Below the pieces are notes generated by a model. That model saw nothing but the letters and a program-made list of their open reading frames with translations, was not told the origin of the DNA and made no database searches. From a virus (lineage: Duplodnaviria > Heunggongvirae > Uroviricota > Caudoviricetes), in IMG/VR virus record IMGVR_UViG_2778261535_000013, positions 1 to 43,950 of that record: a stretch of 43,950 nt of DNA, one strand, 5' to 3'. The position numbers were made by a program, and so were the translations under genes. Each line of letters begins with the position of its first letter. Position 1 is the first letter of the stretch. Shown here in pieces: positions 17,508 to 41,961 of the stretch.

Positions 17508-17571
17508 GCTGTCTGCTCTCCGGTTTTAACGTTGATGGTTACGCTTGTTTACACCCTTACGGTGAAATTCT

Positions 17572-17694
17572 GCGGGTTATAATCGCACTTTTGCGGGTTA
17601 TAACTGCCGTTTTGCGGGTTACGTGCGGGTTATTGATTTCCTTTTTATTCATACAGTTAATGCACTTATATACATGATAACCCGCATAACCCGC
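17572..17694. repeat. iteron cluster B: four GCGGGTTA(T/C) copies, an AT-rich spacer, and two inverted ATAACCCGC copies; candidate origin
   Basis: direct reading; lies immediately downstream of the replication gene. Confidence 0.6.
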
Positions 17695-28407: not shown

Positions 28408-28490
28408 TGGACCGTCACCGGGGACTCGAACCCCGCACCACAAAACAACAATACGTGTTATGCACTCTTACCCGATGAGTTAGTGACGGT
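28408..28490 (-). tRNA. tRNA-like gene with non-canonical anticodon arm (possible GUA anticodon), may be a pseudo-tRNA
   Basis: perfect acceptor stem CCGTCAC/GTGACGG, T-arm CGGGG-TTCGAGT-CCCCG and CCA end, but the anticodon arm only folds as ATAAC-ACGTATT-GTTGT with C at position 33. Confidence 0.45.
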
Positions 28491-29135: not shown

Positions 29136-29210
<75 letters not shown>

Positions 29211-29213
29211 ATA

Positions 29214-29289
<76 letters not shown>

Positions 29290-29291
29290 AC

Positions 29292-29369
29292 TGGACCGCC
29301 ACCGGGGACTCGAACCTCGCACACTCAACTTAAAGGGTTGACGCTCTTTCCTGATGAGCTAGTGGCGGT
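29292..29369 (-). tRNA. tRNA-like gene, possible UUU (Lys) anticodon with C at position 33
   Basis: folds as CCGCCAC-TA-GCTC…GAGC-G-TCAAC-CCTTTAA-GTTGA-GTGTG-CGAGG-TTCGAGT-CCCCG-GTGGCGG-T-CCA with one T-stem mismatch; abuts the next tRNA with no spacer. Confidence 0.5.
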
Positions 29370-29445
29370 TGGTGGCCCTTGCTGGATTTGAACCAGCGAC
29401 CTGGCGATTATGAGTCGCTCGCTCTCACCACTGAGCTAAAGGGCC
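29370..29445 (-). tRNA. tRNA with CAU anticodon (Ile2/lysidine type or elongator Met)
   Basis: 76 nt GGCCCTTTAGCTCAGTGGTGAGAGCGAGCGACTCATAATCGC…GGGCCACCA; resembles E. coli ileX-type tRNA as recalled. Confidence 0.85.
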
Positions 29446-32206: not shown

Positions 32207-32362
32207 TTACTCCTCAGGTTCGTAAGCTGTGAAGACAGCGACCTCCGTCTGGCCGGTTCGGATTCGTACCTCGCAGAGGTCTTTCCTCGTTACCAGTGCC
32301 GTCACTATGACGGTTAAACAGATGACGATCAGGGCGATTAACATCGCCTTTTGCTGCTTCAT
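32207..32362 (-). CDS. hokD: Hok/Gef-family type I toxin
   Basis: 51 aa MKQQKAMLIALIVICLTVIVTALVTRKDLCEVRIRTGQTEVAVFTAYEPEE; matches the Hok/RelF family, essentially identical to hokD as recalled; the ORF track extends 19 codons upstream in frame. Confidence 0.75.
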   Translation of the reverse strand: MKQQKAMLIALIVICLTVIVTALVTRKDLCEVRIRTGQTEVAVFTAYEPEE

Positions 32363-32573
32363 AGCCTGCTTCTCCTTGCCTTTCGGCACGTAAGAGGCTA
32401 ACCTAGATTTGCCGTTCATAGATTGAGCCTCAGATTAATGTTAAGCGTTTTGCAGGACGCGTAATGTTAACTGGGGCTTTTCTCTATCTGCCTTTGGTGT
32501 TCATGCCTGAGACAGATAGCCTCAAGCACCCGCAGCCATTCTACTTAACTCCCGTCACCTGGCCAATATAAAA

Positions 32574-32948: not shown

Positions 32949-33986
32949 TTAATTACCCTTATCAATTTTAAGAAATACATTTCCAATCTCATCAGAATAA
33001 TCCTGTATTATTTTTGAAATGACGGCATGATCAATGGTTGGTTTTAAGAATAAAAGTGTCACAGTAATCTGCATCAAACTAATAGCAGTAGCATGGGCTG
33101 GATCAGCCATTCCTGAATCACTTTGCCCGACCAATAATATATCATCACCAGTTTCACAGAGACCAAGCCTATTTCTCATTGCCTTGGAACCGGTGTGTAC
33201 ATTCTGACTCGCCCACTTATAATAAGGGCGCATGTGTTCTAACTGAACATCTTTCTCAATAGCTCCAAACCCCACTTTATTATGGTTAGGGAAAATATAA
33301 GATGCCCACCCATAATTATCTGCATATTTTTTGCCATATTTTTTTATTAATAGATCAAATTGAACTTTACACTCAGCTATTTCTTCAATAGTTGGACCTT
33401 TTGCTTCTAACCGGTGCTCGTACTTTTTGTGTTCCAACATTCCAGTATATGAATCAACCACTTCATGGTAGTAAAAGCGCTCAGCACACTCTTTTCCATG
33501 CTTTGCTATAAACATAGCTGTGGCCGCTACCTCATGAAGTGCTCGCCATCTCGCTTGGGCAGCATCTGCAAATCCATTCTTTAAGAGACACAAAATTTCG
33601 TTGGCGATGTGGCAAGCTCTTGCGTGATGCCGAACAACTAAATCAAAAACCACATCCTCTTCAGAGGCAGCTTGTGGTCTATAAGAACGATTGAACTCTT
33701 CACCGGACTCCGTGCATATCACTATAAGTGTTTCGAGCAAATCAAAAGCCTCTGCCCATCTTGAAATATTTCTCTCAACAAATTCATCACAAAGAGAACG
33801 ATGTTCTCTAAGCATTGCATTGGCCGAGCCAATAAGAGATTTTTTAACAACAATGGCTATTTTGGGAATTAGGTTATTAATTTCTTTTTCGATATCAGCG
33901 TCACCAGATAAATCAAGTCTCTCTTTTAAAAGGCTGTCTATGTGCTCAAGCAAAATATTATGAAAAGTATCCATGTCATATCTCAA
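32949..33986 (-). CDS. orphan 345-aa protein in an AT-rich block (candidate accessory or defence gene)
   Basis: long uninterrupted ORF in a region visibly more AT-rich than its flanks, bounded by about 200 bp of non-coding DNA on each side; no confident family assignment. Confidence 0.5.
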   Translation of the reverse strand: MRYDMDTFHNILLEHIDSLLKERLDLSGDADIEKEINNLIPKIAIVVKKSLIGSANAMLREHRSLCDEFVERNISRWAEAFDLLETLIVICTESGEEFNRSYRPQAASEEDVVFDLVVRHHARACHIANEILCLLKNGFADAAQARWRALHEVAATAMFIAKHGKECAERFYYHEVVDSYTGMLEHKKYEHRLEAKGPTIEEIAECKVQFDLLIKKYGKKYADNYGWASYIFPNHNKVGFGAIEKDVQLEHMRPYYKWASQNVHTGSKAMRNRLGLCETGDDILLVGQSDSGMADPAHATAISLMQITVTLLFLKPTIDHAVISKIIQDYSDEIGNVFLKIDKGN

Positions 33987-34201: not shown

Positions 34202-34627
34202 CTAGTAACGTCTAAAATACCTAACATTTCCCTGATAAAATGCCAGAATGCGCTGCATAACTTCGCTCTTCCGGCACTCGCGACAGATTATGTTTAGACA
34301 ACTATCGTAGCGACGTATTTCTCCGTCAGGTAATGACCAGATAAGGTCCGGATCAACCGCAGATGGTTTCTTCAGCTTTGCCCTTGAGAGCTTTTTACGG
34401 GCATTTTGCCAGTCCTTACGCGCCTGTTCAGACGGGAATAACCCGTAACCAGAGTTGTATACATCGCCGCTGGCAACCAGCTCTCTTGCGAGAACGCTCA
34501 TCAGATATCTTGTCGCACCTGTCTTGACTTCCAGTTGCCGTAACGTCTCACGCCCACTCTGGCGTACGAGTTCAACAACCTGTCCTTTAATTTTTTCCCG
34601 CTCTTCTTGTGTAAAAACTTTTGCCAC
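34202..34627 (-). CDS. hypothetical protein
   Basis: 141 aa ORF downstream of the replication initiator gene; basic with a C-terminal Cys cluster. Confidence 0.4.
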   Translation of the reverse strand: MAKVFTQEEREKIKGQVVELVRQSGRETLRQLEVKTGATRYLMSVLARELVASGDVYNSGYGLFPSEQARKDWQNARKKLSRAKLKKPSAVDPDLIWSLPDGEIRRYDSCLNIICRECRKSEVMQRILAFYQGNVRYFRRY

Positions 34628-34667: not shown

Positions 34668-35744
34668 TTACCCCCTGAAGCCCGGCGGAATTTCGTTATC
34701 CGGTTCAGAAATATGATTCACACAACGCTGGTTGTTCGTGCCGCTTACCGGGAGCAACCAGGGGTTCTCAAAATTCCGGTCCGGTCCAAAAAACGTCGTC
34801 GCTCGCTGAACAAATTCCGTTCCCGTTTTCCCGGTAGCCGCCAGGTATCTTGCGTAACGCCTCACGCCATCCAGCATGGCCTCTGGTGGCACCCCCTCGC
34901 GTAATCTGGCCTTCCAGGCACTGAAAGCTGATTTCTTCGGGTTTGCTCCGGCACGCAACGGGTACTCCCGCCAGACCTGTTCGAACACATCCGGATAATC
35001 CACTCGTCCCACAGACTGCCCGGTGTTTTCCGGGACTACCCGATCGGCTTCCCGCTGAATGGCGGAATCGGCTTCGGGCTGCTGCAGTTGGTGTGATTGC
35101 TCCAGCCTTGCGGTCATCACCTGCTGCACAGCGCCCGAATCGGCTTTCAGCGCATACGCTGAATCGGCTTCCGGTGTCGTGCCTGCTGGCTGACCAAGAT
35201 TGACGGTCTGAACATCCCCTGCCTGGTTCGTGGCGTTTTTTACGCCATGGACCATAGTGTTTTGATCTTCTTGATCTGTATCTTTATCTGTATCTTTATC
35301 TGTCGTGACTCGTCGTGACATGTGCGTGACATTTCGTGACGCGCCGTGACAATCGCCATTTTGTTCCCGCTTTCTTTCCCTCTCTCGCTGCGCCCTCTTG
35401 CGCTCTGCAGGAGATTTTGCGGTTTGCGAAATATTGCCGTTGTCCTCTTTAAGCACCTGGCGTTTTTCCCATCCAGTGATTAAATCACCATCAAGTACCC
35501 GCCCCTGCATCGTCTGCAAAATTGAATCAATTACCTCTTCTGTCACGTCGAGCGCACTTGCCAAATCTTCTGTCGTGACATCAATGTGACCTCGCGTGAC
35601 ATTTCGTGACGCGCTCACCAGGAGGTGGATATACACTGCCATCACTGTTGCAATTGGCTGCCCTGACACCCTGGCAATTGTTCGCCACTTAGGGTCATTT
35701 GGCATGTCATGCCATAATCTGAGCCAGGCGTTAGCCATACTCAC
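34668..35744 (-). CDS. replication initiator (lambda O-like role) containing internal iterons
   Basis: 358 aa; two arrays of CGTGAC repeats inside the coding sequence; C-terminal …FEQVWREYPLRAGANPKKSAFSAWKARL… motif seen in phage replication proteins. Confidence 0.55.
   Translation of the reverse strand: MSMANAWLRLWHDMPNDPKWRTIARVSGQPIATVMAVYIHLLVSASRNVTRGHIDVTTEDLASALDVTEEVIDSILQTMQGRVLDGDLITGWEKRQVLKEDNGNISQTAKSPAERKRAQRERERKREQNGDCHGASRNVTHMSRRVTTDKDTDKDTDQEDQNTMVHGVKNATNQAGDVQTVNLGQPAGTTPEADSAYALKADSGAVQQVMTARLEQSHQLQQPEADSAIQREADRVVPENTGQSVGRVDYPDVFEQVWREYPLRAGANPKKSAFSAWKARLREGVPPEAMLDGVRRYARYLAATGKTGTEFVQRATTFFGPDRNFENPWLLPVSGTNNQRCVNHISEPDNEIPPGFRG
35303..35349. repeat. iteron array 1: five CGTGAC copies at about 10-11 bp spacing
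   Basis: direct reading, inside the replication gene. Confidence 0.55.
35543..35610. repeat. iteron array 2: four (C)GTGAC copies plus one inverted copy
   Basis: direct reading, about 230 bp from array 1, inside the replication gene. Confidence 0.5.
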
Positions 35745-38793: not shown

Positions 38794-38846
38794 TTTCTGG
38801 TGACGTTTGGCGGTATCAGTTTTACTCCGTGACTGCTCTGCCGCCC
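38794..38846 (+). ncRNA. dicF: DicF small RNA
   Basis: TTTCTGGTGACGTTTGGCGGTATCAGTTTTACTCCGTGACTGCTCTGCCGCCC followed by TTTTT matches the DicF sRNA sequence as recalled; lies immediately upstream of dicB as in Qin. Confidence 0.7.
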
Positions 38847-39489: not shown

Positions 39490-41961
39490 ATGAGTAAAGT
39501 CTTTATTTGCGCCGCCATTCCGGACGAACAGGCAATAAAGGAAGAAGGTGCAGTCGCTGTAGCTACTGCCATTGAAGCCGGTGATGAACGTCGCGCCCGC
39601 GCAAAATTTCACTGGCAATTCCTGGAACATTATCCGGCTGCTCAGGACTGCGCTTATAAATTTCTTGTCTGCGAGGATAAACCCGGTATACCCCGCCCTG
39701 CCCTCGATTCCTGGGATGCTGAATATATGCAGGAAAACCGCTGGGATGAGGAGTCTGCTTCCTTTGTCCCGGTTGAGACTGAATCAGATCCGATGAACGT
39801 CACTTTTGACAAGCTGGCCCCTGAAGTACAGAACGCTGTCATGGTTAAGTTCGACACATGTGAAAACATCACTGTTGATATGGTGATTAGCGCACAGGAA
39901 TTGTTGCAGGAAGACATGGCAACATTCGACGGCCATATCGTTGAAGCGTTGATGAAAATGCCAGAAGTAAACGCCATGTATCCGGAGCTTAAGCTGCATG
40001 CCATCGGGTGGGTTAAGCATAAATGTAAGCCTGGTGCCAAATGGCCCGAAATTCAGGCAGAGATGTGCATCTGGAAAAAACGTCGCGAAGGTGAACGCAA
40101 GGAAACCGGAAAATACACGTCTGTTGTTGATCTCGCCCGCGCCAGACCCAATCAACAGAACACTGAAAATTCAACAGGAAAAATCAACCCGGTCATTGCT
40201 GCCACTCATCGCGAATACAAGCAGACATGGAAAACACTGGATGACGAACTGGCCTACGCTCTCTGGCCTGGTGATGTGGATGCCGGAAACATTGACGGCA
40301 GCATCCATCGCTGGGCAAAAAATGAAGTTATCGACAACGACCGCGAAGACTGGAAGCGTATCTCGGCATCAATGCGCAAACAGCCTGATGCCCTTCGCTA
40401 CGACCGCCAGACTATTTTTGGCCTTGTCCGTGAACGTCCGATCGACATTCACAAAGACCCTGTGGCACTGAACAAATACATTACTGAATACCTGACTACA
40501 AAGGGCGTGTTTGAAGATGAAGGAAGAAATCAGAGCGCAACTGATACTCTCTCGTCGCCAGTACCAGAAACTGATGCAGTGGAAACGGCAATTCCGGACA
40601 ACGAAAAAACCGAATGCAAAGTGGAAGTCGAACCATCTGTAGAGCGTGAGGGGCCGTTCTACTTCCTCTTCACCGACAAGAATGGCGAAAAATACGGTCG
40701 CGCAAACAAACTTTCTGGTCTGGATAAGGCGCTGGCTGCCGGGGCTACTGAAATCACGAAAGAAGAATATTTCGCCCGCAAAAACGGTACATACTCAGGT
40801 TCACAACAAAATACTGGTGCATCTGACACGACCGCACAACCAGAGCCGGTAAAAGTTACCGCTGACGAAGTAAACAAAATTATGCAGGCAGCCAATATCA
40901 GCCAGCCTGACGCCGATGAACTGCTTGCAGTATCACGTGGTGAATTTGTTGCAGGGATTAGCGATCCGAATGATCCGAAATGGGTGAAGGGGATTGAAAC
41001 CCGCGATTCTGTGAACCAGAACCAGCAAGAAACGGAACAGAACGACCAGAAAGCGGAACAAAACAGCCCAAATGCGTTACAAAACGAGCCAGAAACGAAA
41101 CAATCCGAACCAGTAGCGCAACAGGAACCGGAAAAAGTCTGCACCGCCTGCGGTCAGAGCGGTGGCGGCAACTGCCCTGATTGTGGCGCGGTGATGGGCG
41201 ACGCAACATACCAGGAAACATTCGATGAAGAGAATCAGGTTGAAGTTCAGGAAAATGATCCGGAGGAAATGGAAGGCGCTGAACATCCACACAAGGAGAA
41301 CCCTGGCGGCAATCAGCATCACGCCAGCGATAATAAAACTGGCGAGGCGACAGATCCCTTAATTAAGGTGAATGGTCATTATAAGCTCACATCCACCAGC
41401 AGAGCGGGGATTCATCTGATGATCGACCTTGAAACAATGGGAAAAAATCCCGATGCCCCGATTATCTCAATAGGCGCAATATTTTTCGATCCACAAACCG
41501 GAGAGATGGGGCCGGAATTTAGCAAGACCATCGATCTGGATACTGCTGGCGGAGTCATTGATCGTGACGTCATTAAATGGTGGCTGAAGCAATCACGTGA
41601 AGCGCAGTCTGCCATTATGACCGATGAAATCCCGTTAGATGATGCACTACTGCAATTGCGGGAATTTATCGACGAAAACTCCGGTGAATTTTTTGTTCAG
41701 GTCTGGGGTAATGGGGCCAACTTCGACAACGTGATTTTACGCCGTTCATACGAACGACAGGGTATCCCCTGCCCGTGGCGCTACTGCAACGATCGCGATG
41801 TACGCACAATCGTTGAGCTGGGGAAAGCCATAGACTTCGATGCCAGAACTGCTATCCCATTCGAAGGTGAGCGCCATAATGCACTTGATGACGCTCGTTA
41901 CCAGGCAAAATACGTTTCAGCTATCTGGCAAAAACTGATCCCGAGTCAGGCTGATTTTTAA
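39490..41961 (+). CDS. large prophage protein with C-terminal DnaQ-like (DEDDh) 3'-5' exonuclease domain
   Basis: 823 aa; exo motifs …MIDLETMG…, …WGNGANFDNVIL…, …HNALDDARYQ…; central CxxC…CPDC zinc-ribbon-like motif; acidic Gln-rich linker. Confidence 0.6.
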   Translation: MSKVFICAAIPDEQAIKEEGAVAVATAIEAGDERRARAKFHWQFLEHYPAAQDCAYKFLVCEDKPGIPRPALDSWDAEYMQENRWDEESASFVPVETESDPMNVTFDKLAPEVQNAVMVKFDTCENITVDMVISAQELLQEDMATFDGHIVEALMKMPEVNAMYPELKLHAIGWVKHKCKPGAKWPEIQAEMCIWKKRREGERKETGKYTSVVDLARARPNQQNTENSTGKINPVIAATHREYKQTWKTLDDELAYALWPGDVDAGNIDGSIHRWAKNEVIDNDREDWKRISASMRKQPDALRYDRQTIFGLVRERPIDIHKDPVALNKYITEYLTTKGVFEDEGRNQSATDTLSSPVPETDAVETAIPDNEKTECKVEVEPSVEREGPFYFLFTDKNGEKYGRANKLSGLDKALAAGATEITKEEYFARKNGTYSGSQQNTGASDTTAQPEPVKVTADEVNKIMQAANISQPDADELLAVSRGEFVAGISDPNDPKWVKGIETRDSVNQNQQETEQNDQKAEQNSPNALQNEPETKQSEPVAQQEPEKVCTACGQSGGGNCPDCGAVMGDATYQETFDEENQVEVQENDPEEMEGAEHPHKENPGGNQHHASDNKTGEATDPLIKVNGHYKLTSTSRAGIHLMIDLETMGKNPDAPIISIGAIFFDPQTGEMGPEFSKTIDLDTAGGVIDRDVIKWWLKQSREAQSAIMTDEIPLDDALLQLREFIDENSGEFFVQVWGNGANFDNVILRRSYERQGIPCPWRYCNDRDVRTIVELGKAIDFDARTAIPFEGERHNALDDARYQAKYVSAIWQKLIPSQADF

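Follow-up and report, generated by a model that had tools for sequence, protein, structure and literature searches.

We analysed a 43,950-bp stretch of DNA from a tailed virus (Caudoviricetes; IMG/VR record IMGVR_UViG_2778261535_000013; hereafter the window) with a focus on the short direct repeats, or iterons, that lie inside its replication initiator gene. As listed among the open reading frames (ORFs), this gene encodes 358 amino acids from a GTG start; the Prokaryotic Genome Annotation Pipeline (PGAP) places the start 6 nt later, at an ATG at 35738, giving 356 amino acids. We found that its product matches PHROG 3729, 'replication initiation protein', with E=3e-257 and over the full length; no Pfam family, Phage_rep_O included, exceeded the default threshold, and no Rep family matched. 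Some sources label the protein 'phage replisome organizer', and in a 99.9%-identical Escherichia coli locus the PGAP label is 'hypothetical protein'. The gene and its repeats are as follows:

34668..35744, minus strand: replication initiator gene (ORF list; full-length phrog_3729 match)
35574..35610, minus strand: iteron array A, four GTCACG copies on the gene strand, one of them GTCACA, spaced 10, 10 and 11 bp
35304..35350, minus strand: iteron array B, GTCACG five times without a mismatch on the gene strand, at steps of 10, 10, 11 and 10 bp
35542..35547, plus strand: single iteron copy in the opposite orientation (exact CGTGAC search)

Read on the plus strand, an exact search placed the CGTGAC starts of array B at 35304, 35314, 35325, 35335 and 35345 (steps of 10, 11, 10 and 10) and those of array A at 35574, 35595 and 35605, the gap in array A being filled by a one-mismatch copy, TGTGAC, at 35585-35590 that completes a plus-strand spacing of 11, 10 and 10. 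The first-pass annotation, which was made from the sequence alone, had described five copies at 35303-35349 and four at 35574-35610, spaced about 10-11 bp apart inside the 358-amino-acid replication gene. The exact search bore out the placement of both arrays within the minus-strand ORF and the spacing, which is 10 or 11 bp throughout. All five copies of array B are exact and begin one base further on (35304-35350), and the location and count of array A hold with three exact copies plus the TGTGAC at 35585. Each iteron is a 6-7-bp direct repeat with 4 unconstrained spacer bases, occurring once per helical turn, and the two arrays are approximately 260 bp apart, array A being upstream.

We asked whether this clustering could be expected by chance. 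CGTGAC occurs 26 times on both strands of the window, against an expectation of 19.3 +/- 4.3, while 307 bp of the initiator gene hold eight same-strand copies where approximately 0.06 are expected (P ~1e-14, our own Poisson estimate from the window counts). The period-10/11 array was also picked up by Tandem Repeats Finder, and a scan of the window for any hexamer recurring at 10-11 bp found no other phased cluster.

Nucleotide conservation and co-variation of the hexamers

Repeated DNA within a gene may simply follow from a repeated peptide. Both arrays code ASRNVT...VTT, and the linker encoded by array B is disordered and tolerates tandem duplication, so the hexamers could have no role as DNA and simply reflect protein repeats (SRNVT or VT) or slippage within low-complexity linker sequence. 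The first-pass annotation had named this as the point on which its reading would turn, namely whether the repeats are conserved at the nucleotide level beyond what the protein sequence requires. We gathered homologues of the N-terminal approximately 125 residues both from phages and from a set with a single genome for each species; this species set comprises 80 loci at 37-99% identity from Gamma-, Beta- and Alphaproteobacteria and a few other groups. All loci returned by a scan of IMG/VR had 100%-identical N-terminal domains and were unusable for tests of divergence. The codon alignment contains 26 GTCAC-class sequences at approximately 65-75% amino acid identity, from genera that include Escherichia, Rahnella, Serratia, Bordetella, Pseudomonas, Aquitalea, Acidovorax and Gilvimarinus.

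We found that the eight synonymous sites within the array A hexamers are nearly invariant among the 26 sequences, with a mean entropy of 0.14 bit and a top base at 98%, compared to 1.34 bit and 56%, which is near saturation, at the 60 other synonymous sites of the same domain (Mann-Whitney p=5e-6). The codons of the spacers drift freely, and the spacer Arg codon can be CGA, CGC, CGT or CGG. Three low-entropy synonymous sites lie outside the arrays, including one base before an iteron and the third base of a Val GTG codon within the inverted copy, the latter being 100% conserved. Furthermore, the window hexamer occurs in each reading frame and is translated as S-R, V-T or G-H, and across all loci the array B copies are distributed over the frames as 77/64/64. 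The spacings across loci are 10 bp in 192 cases and 11 bp in 44, neither of them a multiple of 3. Aeromonas phage pAEv1818 and Pseudomonas phage phi1, at approximately 70% protein identity, carry GTCAC(G) copies at identical offsets and retain the 10/10/11 spacing, the inter-array distance of 259-260 bp and the inverted copy at +64.

More distant homologues change the hexamer itself. Clear phased arrays of an NNNACG word are present in 59 of 76 analysable loci, and by hexamer the loci fall into GTCACG (26), CGAACG (21), GTAACG (4), GTGACG (4), GCAACG (3) and GGAACG (1). The word differs between clades, and within a locus arrays A and B carry an identical hexamer; a Ralstonia phage, for example, has GCAACG(C) in both arrays and a spring-water phage CGAACGC in both. 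Array B carries the hexamer of array A in at least two exact copies in 57 of the 76 loci, and at least three phased exact repeats were found in 48 of 68 target regions compared to 0 of 544 flanking control segments. The peptide follows the DNA: the loop residue after a conserved Arg-Gly tracks the iteron (His for CAC, Asn for AAC, Asp for GAC), and VT becomes AT or VVT. Insertions in array A, seen in E. albertii, Erwinia and one E. coli prophage, measure 21 bp, that is, seven codons or two iterons.

The nucleotide conservation at issue was thus found, in synonymous sites that are near-invariant, in a hexamer read in three frames and in copies that change in concert in both arrays. These comparisons show that the hexamers are under selection at the DNA level and that they co-evolve with the N-terminal module of the protein. 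The frozen third positions beside drifting neighbouring codons, the three reading frames, the spacing and the concerted replacement of all copies make a by-product of protein repeats or slippage hardly credible. We looked for specificity-determining residues outside the array-encoded loop and found no convincing class-specific position separable from phylogeny. The distance from array A to array B was also considered as evidence of helical phasing and set aside as uninformative, because the gain or loss of one iteron shifts it by 10-11 bp in any case.

The AT-rich tract, the hairpin and the exchange of protein modules

Two further features lie on the gene-downstream side of array B:

35255..35303, no strand assigned: candidate DNA-unwinding element, an AT-rich tract of period 6, ACAGATAAAGATACAGATAAAGATACAGATCAAGAAGATCAAAA on the gene strand (Tandem Repeats Finder, A+T content, duplex stability)
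35224..35254, no strand assigned: inverted repeat with 13-nt arms and a 5-nt loop, adjoining the AT-rich tract distally (repeat search, DNA folding)

Tandem Repeats Finder reported 2.9 copies of a 12-bp unit, TCTTTATCTGTA, at 35269-35303, coding DKDTDKDTD. This Asp/Thr/Lys repeat had been placed between the arrays by the first-pass annotation; in fact it adjoins array B and lies outside both. The 50 nt past the last array B iteron are 72% A+T, compared to 46% for the gene, and the same enrichment past array B is present in 64 of 65 loci (mean +0.20), where it is limited to approximately 45 nt. The tract is the least stable 40-mer of the gene (nearest-neighbour dG -43.4 versus a mean of -57.3 kcal/mol) and belongs to the 0.44% least stable 40-mers of the whole window. 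It is also strand-asymmetric, with 71% purines on the coding strand versus 56% for the gene. In relatives, period-6 purine forms (AGATAAAGATAAAGA, AGATACAGATACA, AGAGAAGAGAAG or AGAGAAGAG) occur at nearly every locus and with any iteron class. The motif AGA[TG]A returns every 6 nt regardless of iteron class and reading frame, the tract peptide being DKDK, DTDT, REEKSRE or RLDKRRVDK depending on the frame, and in 33 of 60 loci the repeat begins 2 nt past the last iteron. A period-6 tract stands at the equivalent place in loci L001-L004 and L086-L164 of our collection. The purine tract could be a sequence-specific track for single-strand binding rather than merely AT-rich DNA. A likeness of the tandem repeat to the oriC 13-mer GATCTnTTnTTTT was dropped as chance: a two-mismatch match begins at 35273, and the window holds 26 such matches where 16 are expected.

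Folded as DNA, the window hairpin at 35224-35254 has a dG of -10.9 kcal/mol (z=-4.95). In the zone 30-60 nt past array B, 15 of 60 loci have a stem of at least 7 bp, compared to 30 among 600 control segments (p=2e-11); perfect stems there reach 5.7 bp on average at their longest, versus 4.5 bp in controls, and across the family the mean folding energy dips in this zone. Stem sequences vary by locus, and the loops are often of the form CC-T[A/G]AC-GG. In 52 of 60 loci the better fold is that of the antisense strand, a bias that base composition could explain. Our data show by comparison of loci that the tract is under DNA-level selection and indicate the same, less strongly, for the hairpin.

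The protein encoded around these elements has two parts:

35352..35744, minus strand: coding region of the N-terminal module, amino acids 1-131, a winged-helix-like domain and a basic helix (AlphaFold2, recombination unit)
34668..35263, minus strand: coding region of the C-terminal module, the exchangeable part with a putative role in partner interaction (PHROG matches, DnaT-like tail)

From an alignment of 46 sequences, AlphaFold2 modelled residues 1-131 with a mean predicted local distance difference test score of 81.5; the model comprises a helix at 31-47, a loop at 48-57 with a short strand, helices at 58-65 and 69-79, a beta hairpin at 80-90, a disordered stretch and a basic helix at 112-129. 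Array A codes amino acids 45-57 (ASRNVTRGHIDVT), the H1-beta1-H2 surface loop, in which seven-residue insertions are tolerated, and the inverted copy codes part of LDVTEE, the turn of the helix-turn-helix. The DNA between the arrays codes the remainder of the winged-helix domain and the basic helix, and array B codes amino acids 132-147, the linker between the domains. The N-terminal module is presumed to be the iteron-binding part that determines specificity.

The C-terminal module matches phrog_18526 and phrog_1701, 'DnaD-like helicase loader', and its last approximately 24 residues resemble the C-terminal tail of DnaT (E ~7e-4). In DnaT itself, the C-terminal domain assembles into filaments along single-stranded DNA, and recruitment of DnaB/DnaC is a proposed role of the protein (PMC13377028). 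We found the two modules apart as well as together. E. coli genomes hold the N-terminal half (~35281-35744) and the C-terminal half (~34670-35263) separately, and in one prophage (L166) a window-type N-terminal module with GTCACG arrays is fused to a DnaT-type single-stranded-DNA-binding domain (PF17948, E=1e-17), with a lambda-P-like gene ('replication protein P') downstream. Conversely, an O157 prophage (L167, 1499-2590) and the Shigella Shiga toxin (Stx) phage 75/02 (L168, 1801-2889) carry the window C-terminal module on an N-terminal domain without detectable similarity, and this domain has its own two arrays of a 9-bp repeat, AAGGGGCTT, at 11-bp spacing and at the equivalent loop and linker positions. 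In phage 75/02 one AAGGGGCTT array, the second, is inverted. These arrangements show that the DNA-binding module and its sites are inherited together and that the partner-interaction module is swapped, as has long been known for lambda O.

We considered whether the arrays might instead be a signal for recombination or module exchange, or another cis site such as a packaging site, and not an origin. The N/C mosaic junction does fall at ~35263-35281, within the AT-rich tandem repeat beside array B, and a second boundary lies in repeats near 35146. Junctions in an inter-domain linker are expected in any two-domain protein, however, and the arrays switch sequence together with the N-terminal domain, which points to a cognate protein-DNA pair. 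In addition, lambdoid packaging sites lie at the terminase end of the genome. We consider this explanation very unlikely.

The repeats near 35146 are four copies of GAATCGGCTT(C) at 35043-35174, which make up a 36-nt imperfect duplication 96 bp apart in the linker of the C-terminal module; the copies share one reading frame (EADS / KADS / EADS / EADR), and the homology boundary with Stx phage 75/02 at ~35146 falls within them. They are most likely a duplication at the protein level. We also observed seven metagenomic matches to the N-terminal domain, of approximately 180-190 amino acids (P0043, P0061, P0062, P0076, P0107, P0109 and P0117), that carry HNH endonuclease domains (PF01844, PF14279), which could reflect insertion of a homing endonuclease into, or its fusion with, the initiator gene.

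A candidate replication origin within its own initiator gene

Taken together, our data suggest that the arrays, the tract and the inverted repeat very probably form the replication origin of this prophage, placed within its own initiator gene, with GTCACG as the iteron of the N-terminal winged-helix module. The proposed core, array B iterons followed by an AT-rich unwinding element and then a palindrome, would have the same order as ori-lambda. We reasoned that the arrays could alternatively be operator or roadblock sites at which the initiator, or another phage DNA-binding protein, controls the replication operon, with the origin located elsewhere. A protein bound to array A, which falls within 170 nt of the gene start, could stop RNA polymerase, and co-variation of the arrays with the N-terminal domain would be expected of any cognate operator; moreover, array A is dispensable in some relatives (see below). 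However, array B followed at a fixed distance by a melt-prone tract (64 of 65 loci) and then by a hairpin is the signature of an origin, the 44-kb window offers no further phased repeat cluster, and the precedents of lambda, P22 and SPP1 put the origin exactly here. The two roles are also compatible, in that array A may be regulatory and array B the origin. We regard an operator with an origin elsewhere as unlikely.

Several observations weigh against an origin of the kind proposed. Array A is absent, and array B kept, in approximately 10 of 65 relatives, mostly alphaproteobacterial, so array A is not essential to the family; array B, present in essentially all members, would be the origin core. 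No DnaA box with up to one mismatch lies within 34668-35744, and counts across the window are at chance. The window contains no helicase or loader gene directly downstream of the initiator and no P-type loader, so that helicase recruitment in this module would have to use host proteins; relatives with such downstream genes include an Aeromonas phage (helicase), a Ralstonia phage (dnaB) and a Pseudomonas phage (P / DnaB-like). As to the mode of DNA reading, the predicted 'recognition' helix at amino acids 69-79 is acidic. The N-terminal domain aligns with Phage_rep_org_N over the full model length but scores below threshold (TIGR01714 E=0.016 and 15.4 bits where 49.8 are required; PF09681 E=0.12), Foldseek returned weak MarR/CRP-type winged-helix matches only (E>0.1), and a sequence-profile search of the PDB gave nothing significant. 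Finally, the loci share descent, and the locus counts given above therefore exceed the number of independent events.

What we infer beyond the elements themselves is how they might act, namely binding by the N-terminal module, melting, helicase recruitment and the part played by array A. In such a scheme, initiator monomers would bind the GTCACG hexamers in phase on one face of the helix, and the bound initiators would oligomerise and distort the DNA until the adjacent low-stability tract at 35255-35303 melts. The C-terminal module, which has a DnaT-like tail here and a full DnaT-type single-stranded-DNA-binding domain in relatives, would capture the single strand and then bring in DnaB/DnaC of the host; in relatives a phage-encoded P, DnaC or DnaB would be recruited instead. 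As in lambda, initiation may be helped by transcription that runs from the early promoter across the gene. Array A and the inverted copy might serve as auxiliary sites, either by forming a loop of approximately 260 bp to array B or as a roadblock that limits synthesis of the initiator.

A broader hypothesis, which we put forward tentatively and consider doubtful as it stands, is that the two-array layout is a general and unrecognised design rule in a large class of proteobacterial phage initiators. The layout is seen in at least two N-terminal domain families without detectable sequence similarity, and under such a rule one array would lie in the coding sequence of the DNA-binding domain, with the surface loop dictated by the binding site, so that a change of specificity must rewrite approximately nine sites and the protein together. 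Much as DnaA-trios do, the purine tract would give the DnaT-like C-terminal domain a sequence-specific place to land on single-stranded DNA, and the conserved hairpin would be a signal for priming or primosome assembly.

Known origins and the phage family

Origins within initiator genes have well-studied precedents. In lambda and its Stx relatives the origin consists of iterons and an AT-rich tract within O (PMC7466680), phages P22 and L have iterons in gene 18 that are the proposed origin (PMC8022706), and SPP1 oriL is embedded in gene 38, where direct repeats bound by G38P are followed by an AT-rich DNA-unwinding element in a system that has been reconstituted (PMC6316719, PMC5737612). With lambda O, and likewise with the Stx phages 933W and P27 and with P22 gene 18, the window gene shares the mid-gene position of its candidate origin and a place in the early rightward operon after cro- and cII-like genes. 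It would also share an origin-specific N-terminal part and a partner-specific C-terminal part, and it is likewise mosaic at the linker between them (PMC7466680, PMC8022706). As in ori-lambda, the iterons lie inside the initiator coding sequence and are adjoined by a melt-prone AT-rich tract and then by a palindrome. The AT-rich tract of lambda is also purine-rich on one strand. The comparison with lambda-type origins drawn by the first-pass annotation is thus supported in the intragenic site, the AT-rich flank and the inverted repeat, and it fails for homology to O and for the 19-bp dyad iterons: the window initiator is not an O homologue and its module lacks a P gene, lambda has four (to six) dyad-symmetric iterons of approximately 19-20 bp where the window has direct repeats of 6-7 bp, and the window has two arrays 260 bp apart, one of them in the coding region of a folded DNA-binding domain.

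SPP1 oriL resembles the window in having direct repeats within the organizer gene and an adjoining AT-rich unwinding element, and the sub-threshold alignment with Phage_rep_org_N runs the full length; the window initiator could belong to the replisome-organizer family. In contrast to SPP1, the host is proteobacterial, a loader and helicase of the gene 39/40 type are missing and the C-terminal module has a DnaT-like tail. We found no second set of repeats like oriR in the 44-kb window, where the other CGTGAC copies are isolated.

Salmonella phage L gene 18 is similar in carrying six imprecise 11-bp repeats (TGTCCAACGGA) in a lambdoid initiator gene, with an origin proposed from sequence alone (PMC8022706). 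It differs in being described with a single array and in pairing with a DnaB-type helicase, gp12, and phage L is absent from the tblastn matches, so that no sequence relationship was detected. The Rac prophage has an active origin, oriJ (PMC3945230), and oriJ plasmids are cited elsewhere (PMC11014345). As in the window, ydaU-ydaV of K-12 Rac follow racR-, ydaS- and ydaT-like genes, and YdaU ends in AIPPGFRG where the window protein ends in EIPPGFRG, a common IPPGFRG C-terminus. Rac ydaU (L170, 3620-4477) contains three GTGTTCAAAC-like copies in 70 bp, then AAAGATACAGATAAAGATCTAAAA, then a CCCCCCC...GGGGG hairpin, a less strict form of the window arrangement that may be the sequence basis of oriJ. 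Unlike the window protein, YdaU has a DUF1376 N-terminal domain, and its repeats, fewer in number and semi-palindromic, lack the 10-11-bp spacing.

Two more distant kinds of origin also use iterons. The origins of iteron plasmids (RepA / pPS10 / R6K) have 17-22-bp iterons outside rep, DnaA boxes and a WH1-WH2 Rep protein, unlike the intragenic hexamers of the window. Staphylococcal pathogenicity islands (SaPIs) have two sets of short hexamer or octamer iterons near an AT-rich region; these sets are extragenic, with the AT-rich region between them, and the SaPI initiator is itself a helicase. In the window, by comparison, the two sets are intragenic and are both found to the same side of the AT-rich tract. 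We found no description of a GTCACG/CGTGAC origin in the literature, which is weak evidence given that most older work in subscription journals was not covered.

The setting of the gene is that of a lambdoid prophage. Upstream, the initiator operon includes one YdaS/Cro-like and one YdaT/CII-like gene, and a repressor is encoded divergently; downstream on the minus strand lie a gene for a DUF977/Ren-like exclusion protein (34202-34627) and, further on, one for a DUF5677 protein (32949-33986). The 99.9%-identical E. coli locus belongs to a lambdoid prophage of the usual kind, which has Q, RusA, DicB, ydfB/C and, beside mtfA, an integrase. The initiator gene is present in 2,699 of 5,426 complete E. 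coli genomes, and a 98-99% identical gene occurs in isolated free-living or inducible phages, including Tritos, Evi and vB_EcoS-689R5. The plasmid collection contained no small replicon carrying the module, of the kind that would demonstrate autonomous replication; its matches were large E. coli plasmids or mis-filed chromosomes and two Pseudomonas aeruginosa records. The latter, CP137943.1 and CP124671.1 (L169), are 50.9-kb circular non-mobilizable 'plasmids' that are lambdoid phage genomes with a GTCACG-class N-terminal domain, and the initiator ORF is missing from their listed annotation. They may represent replicating or circularised phage DNA caught at assembly.

Elsewhere in the window we observed the DicF antisense RNA, the sok antitoxin RNA (hok/sok), four tRNAs (Gly, Thr, Lys and Met) and a doubtful tRNA-Val; the coordinates of this set (DicF, sok and the tRNA cluster) are 38795-38846, 32357-32531, 29136-29445 and 28408-28489. 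Such RNAs are typical cargo of Qin/DicB-type lambdoid prophages. Other tandem repeats are a 21-bp unit in 4.3 copies at 41013-41103 (GAAACAAAACGAGCCAGAAAC) and a 21-bp unit in 2.4 copies at 17571-17621.

The window origin, as reconstructed here by comparison, would be an undescribed member of the kind in which iterons adjoin an unwinding element, as for lambda O and SPP1 G38P, and as a type of origin it would be ordinary. Less ordinary are the second array within the coding sequence of the DNA-binding domain and the purine tract of period 6 that is independent of iteron class. The arrays are an unusually clean natural overlapping code, in which a series of binding sites would dictate the amino acids of a folded protein. 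The iteron classes (GTCACG, GTAACG, CGAACG, GCAACG and GTGACG) may provide a simple sequence predictor of the replication-specificity or incompatibility groups of prophages, and the N-terminal domain, iterons and unwinding tract together would make a compact candidate cassette for phage-derived vectors or for phage resistance by origin decoy ('Per'-type). Among lambdoid replication modules this is one of the commonest, and our data give it a candidate cis element that can be tested; its gene is now annotated as 'hypothetical protein' or 'phage replisome organizer'.

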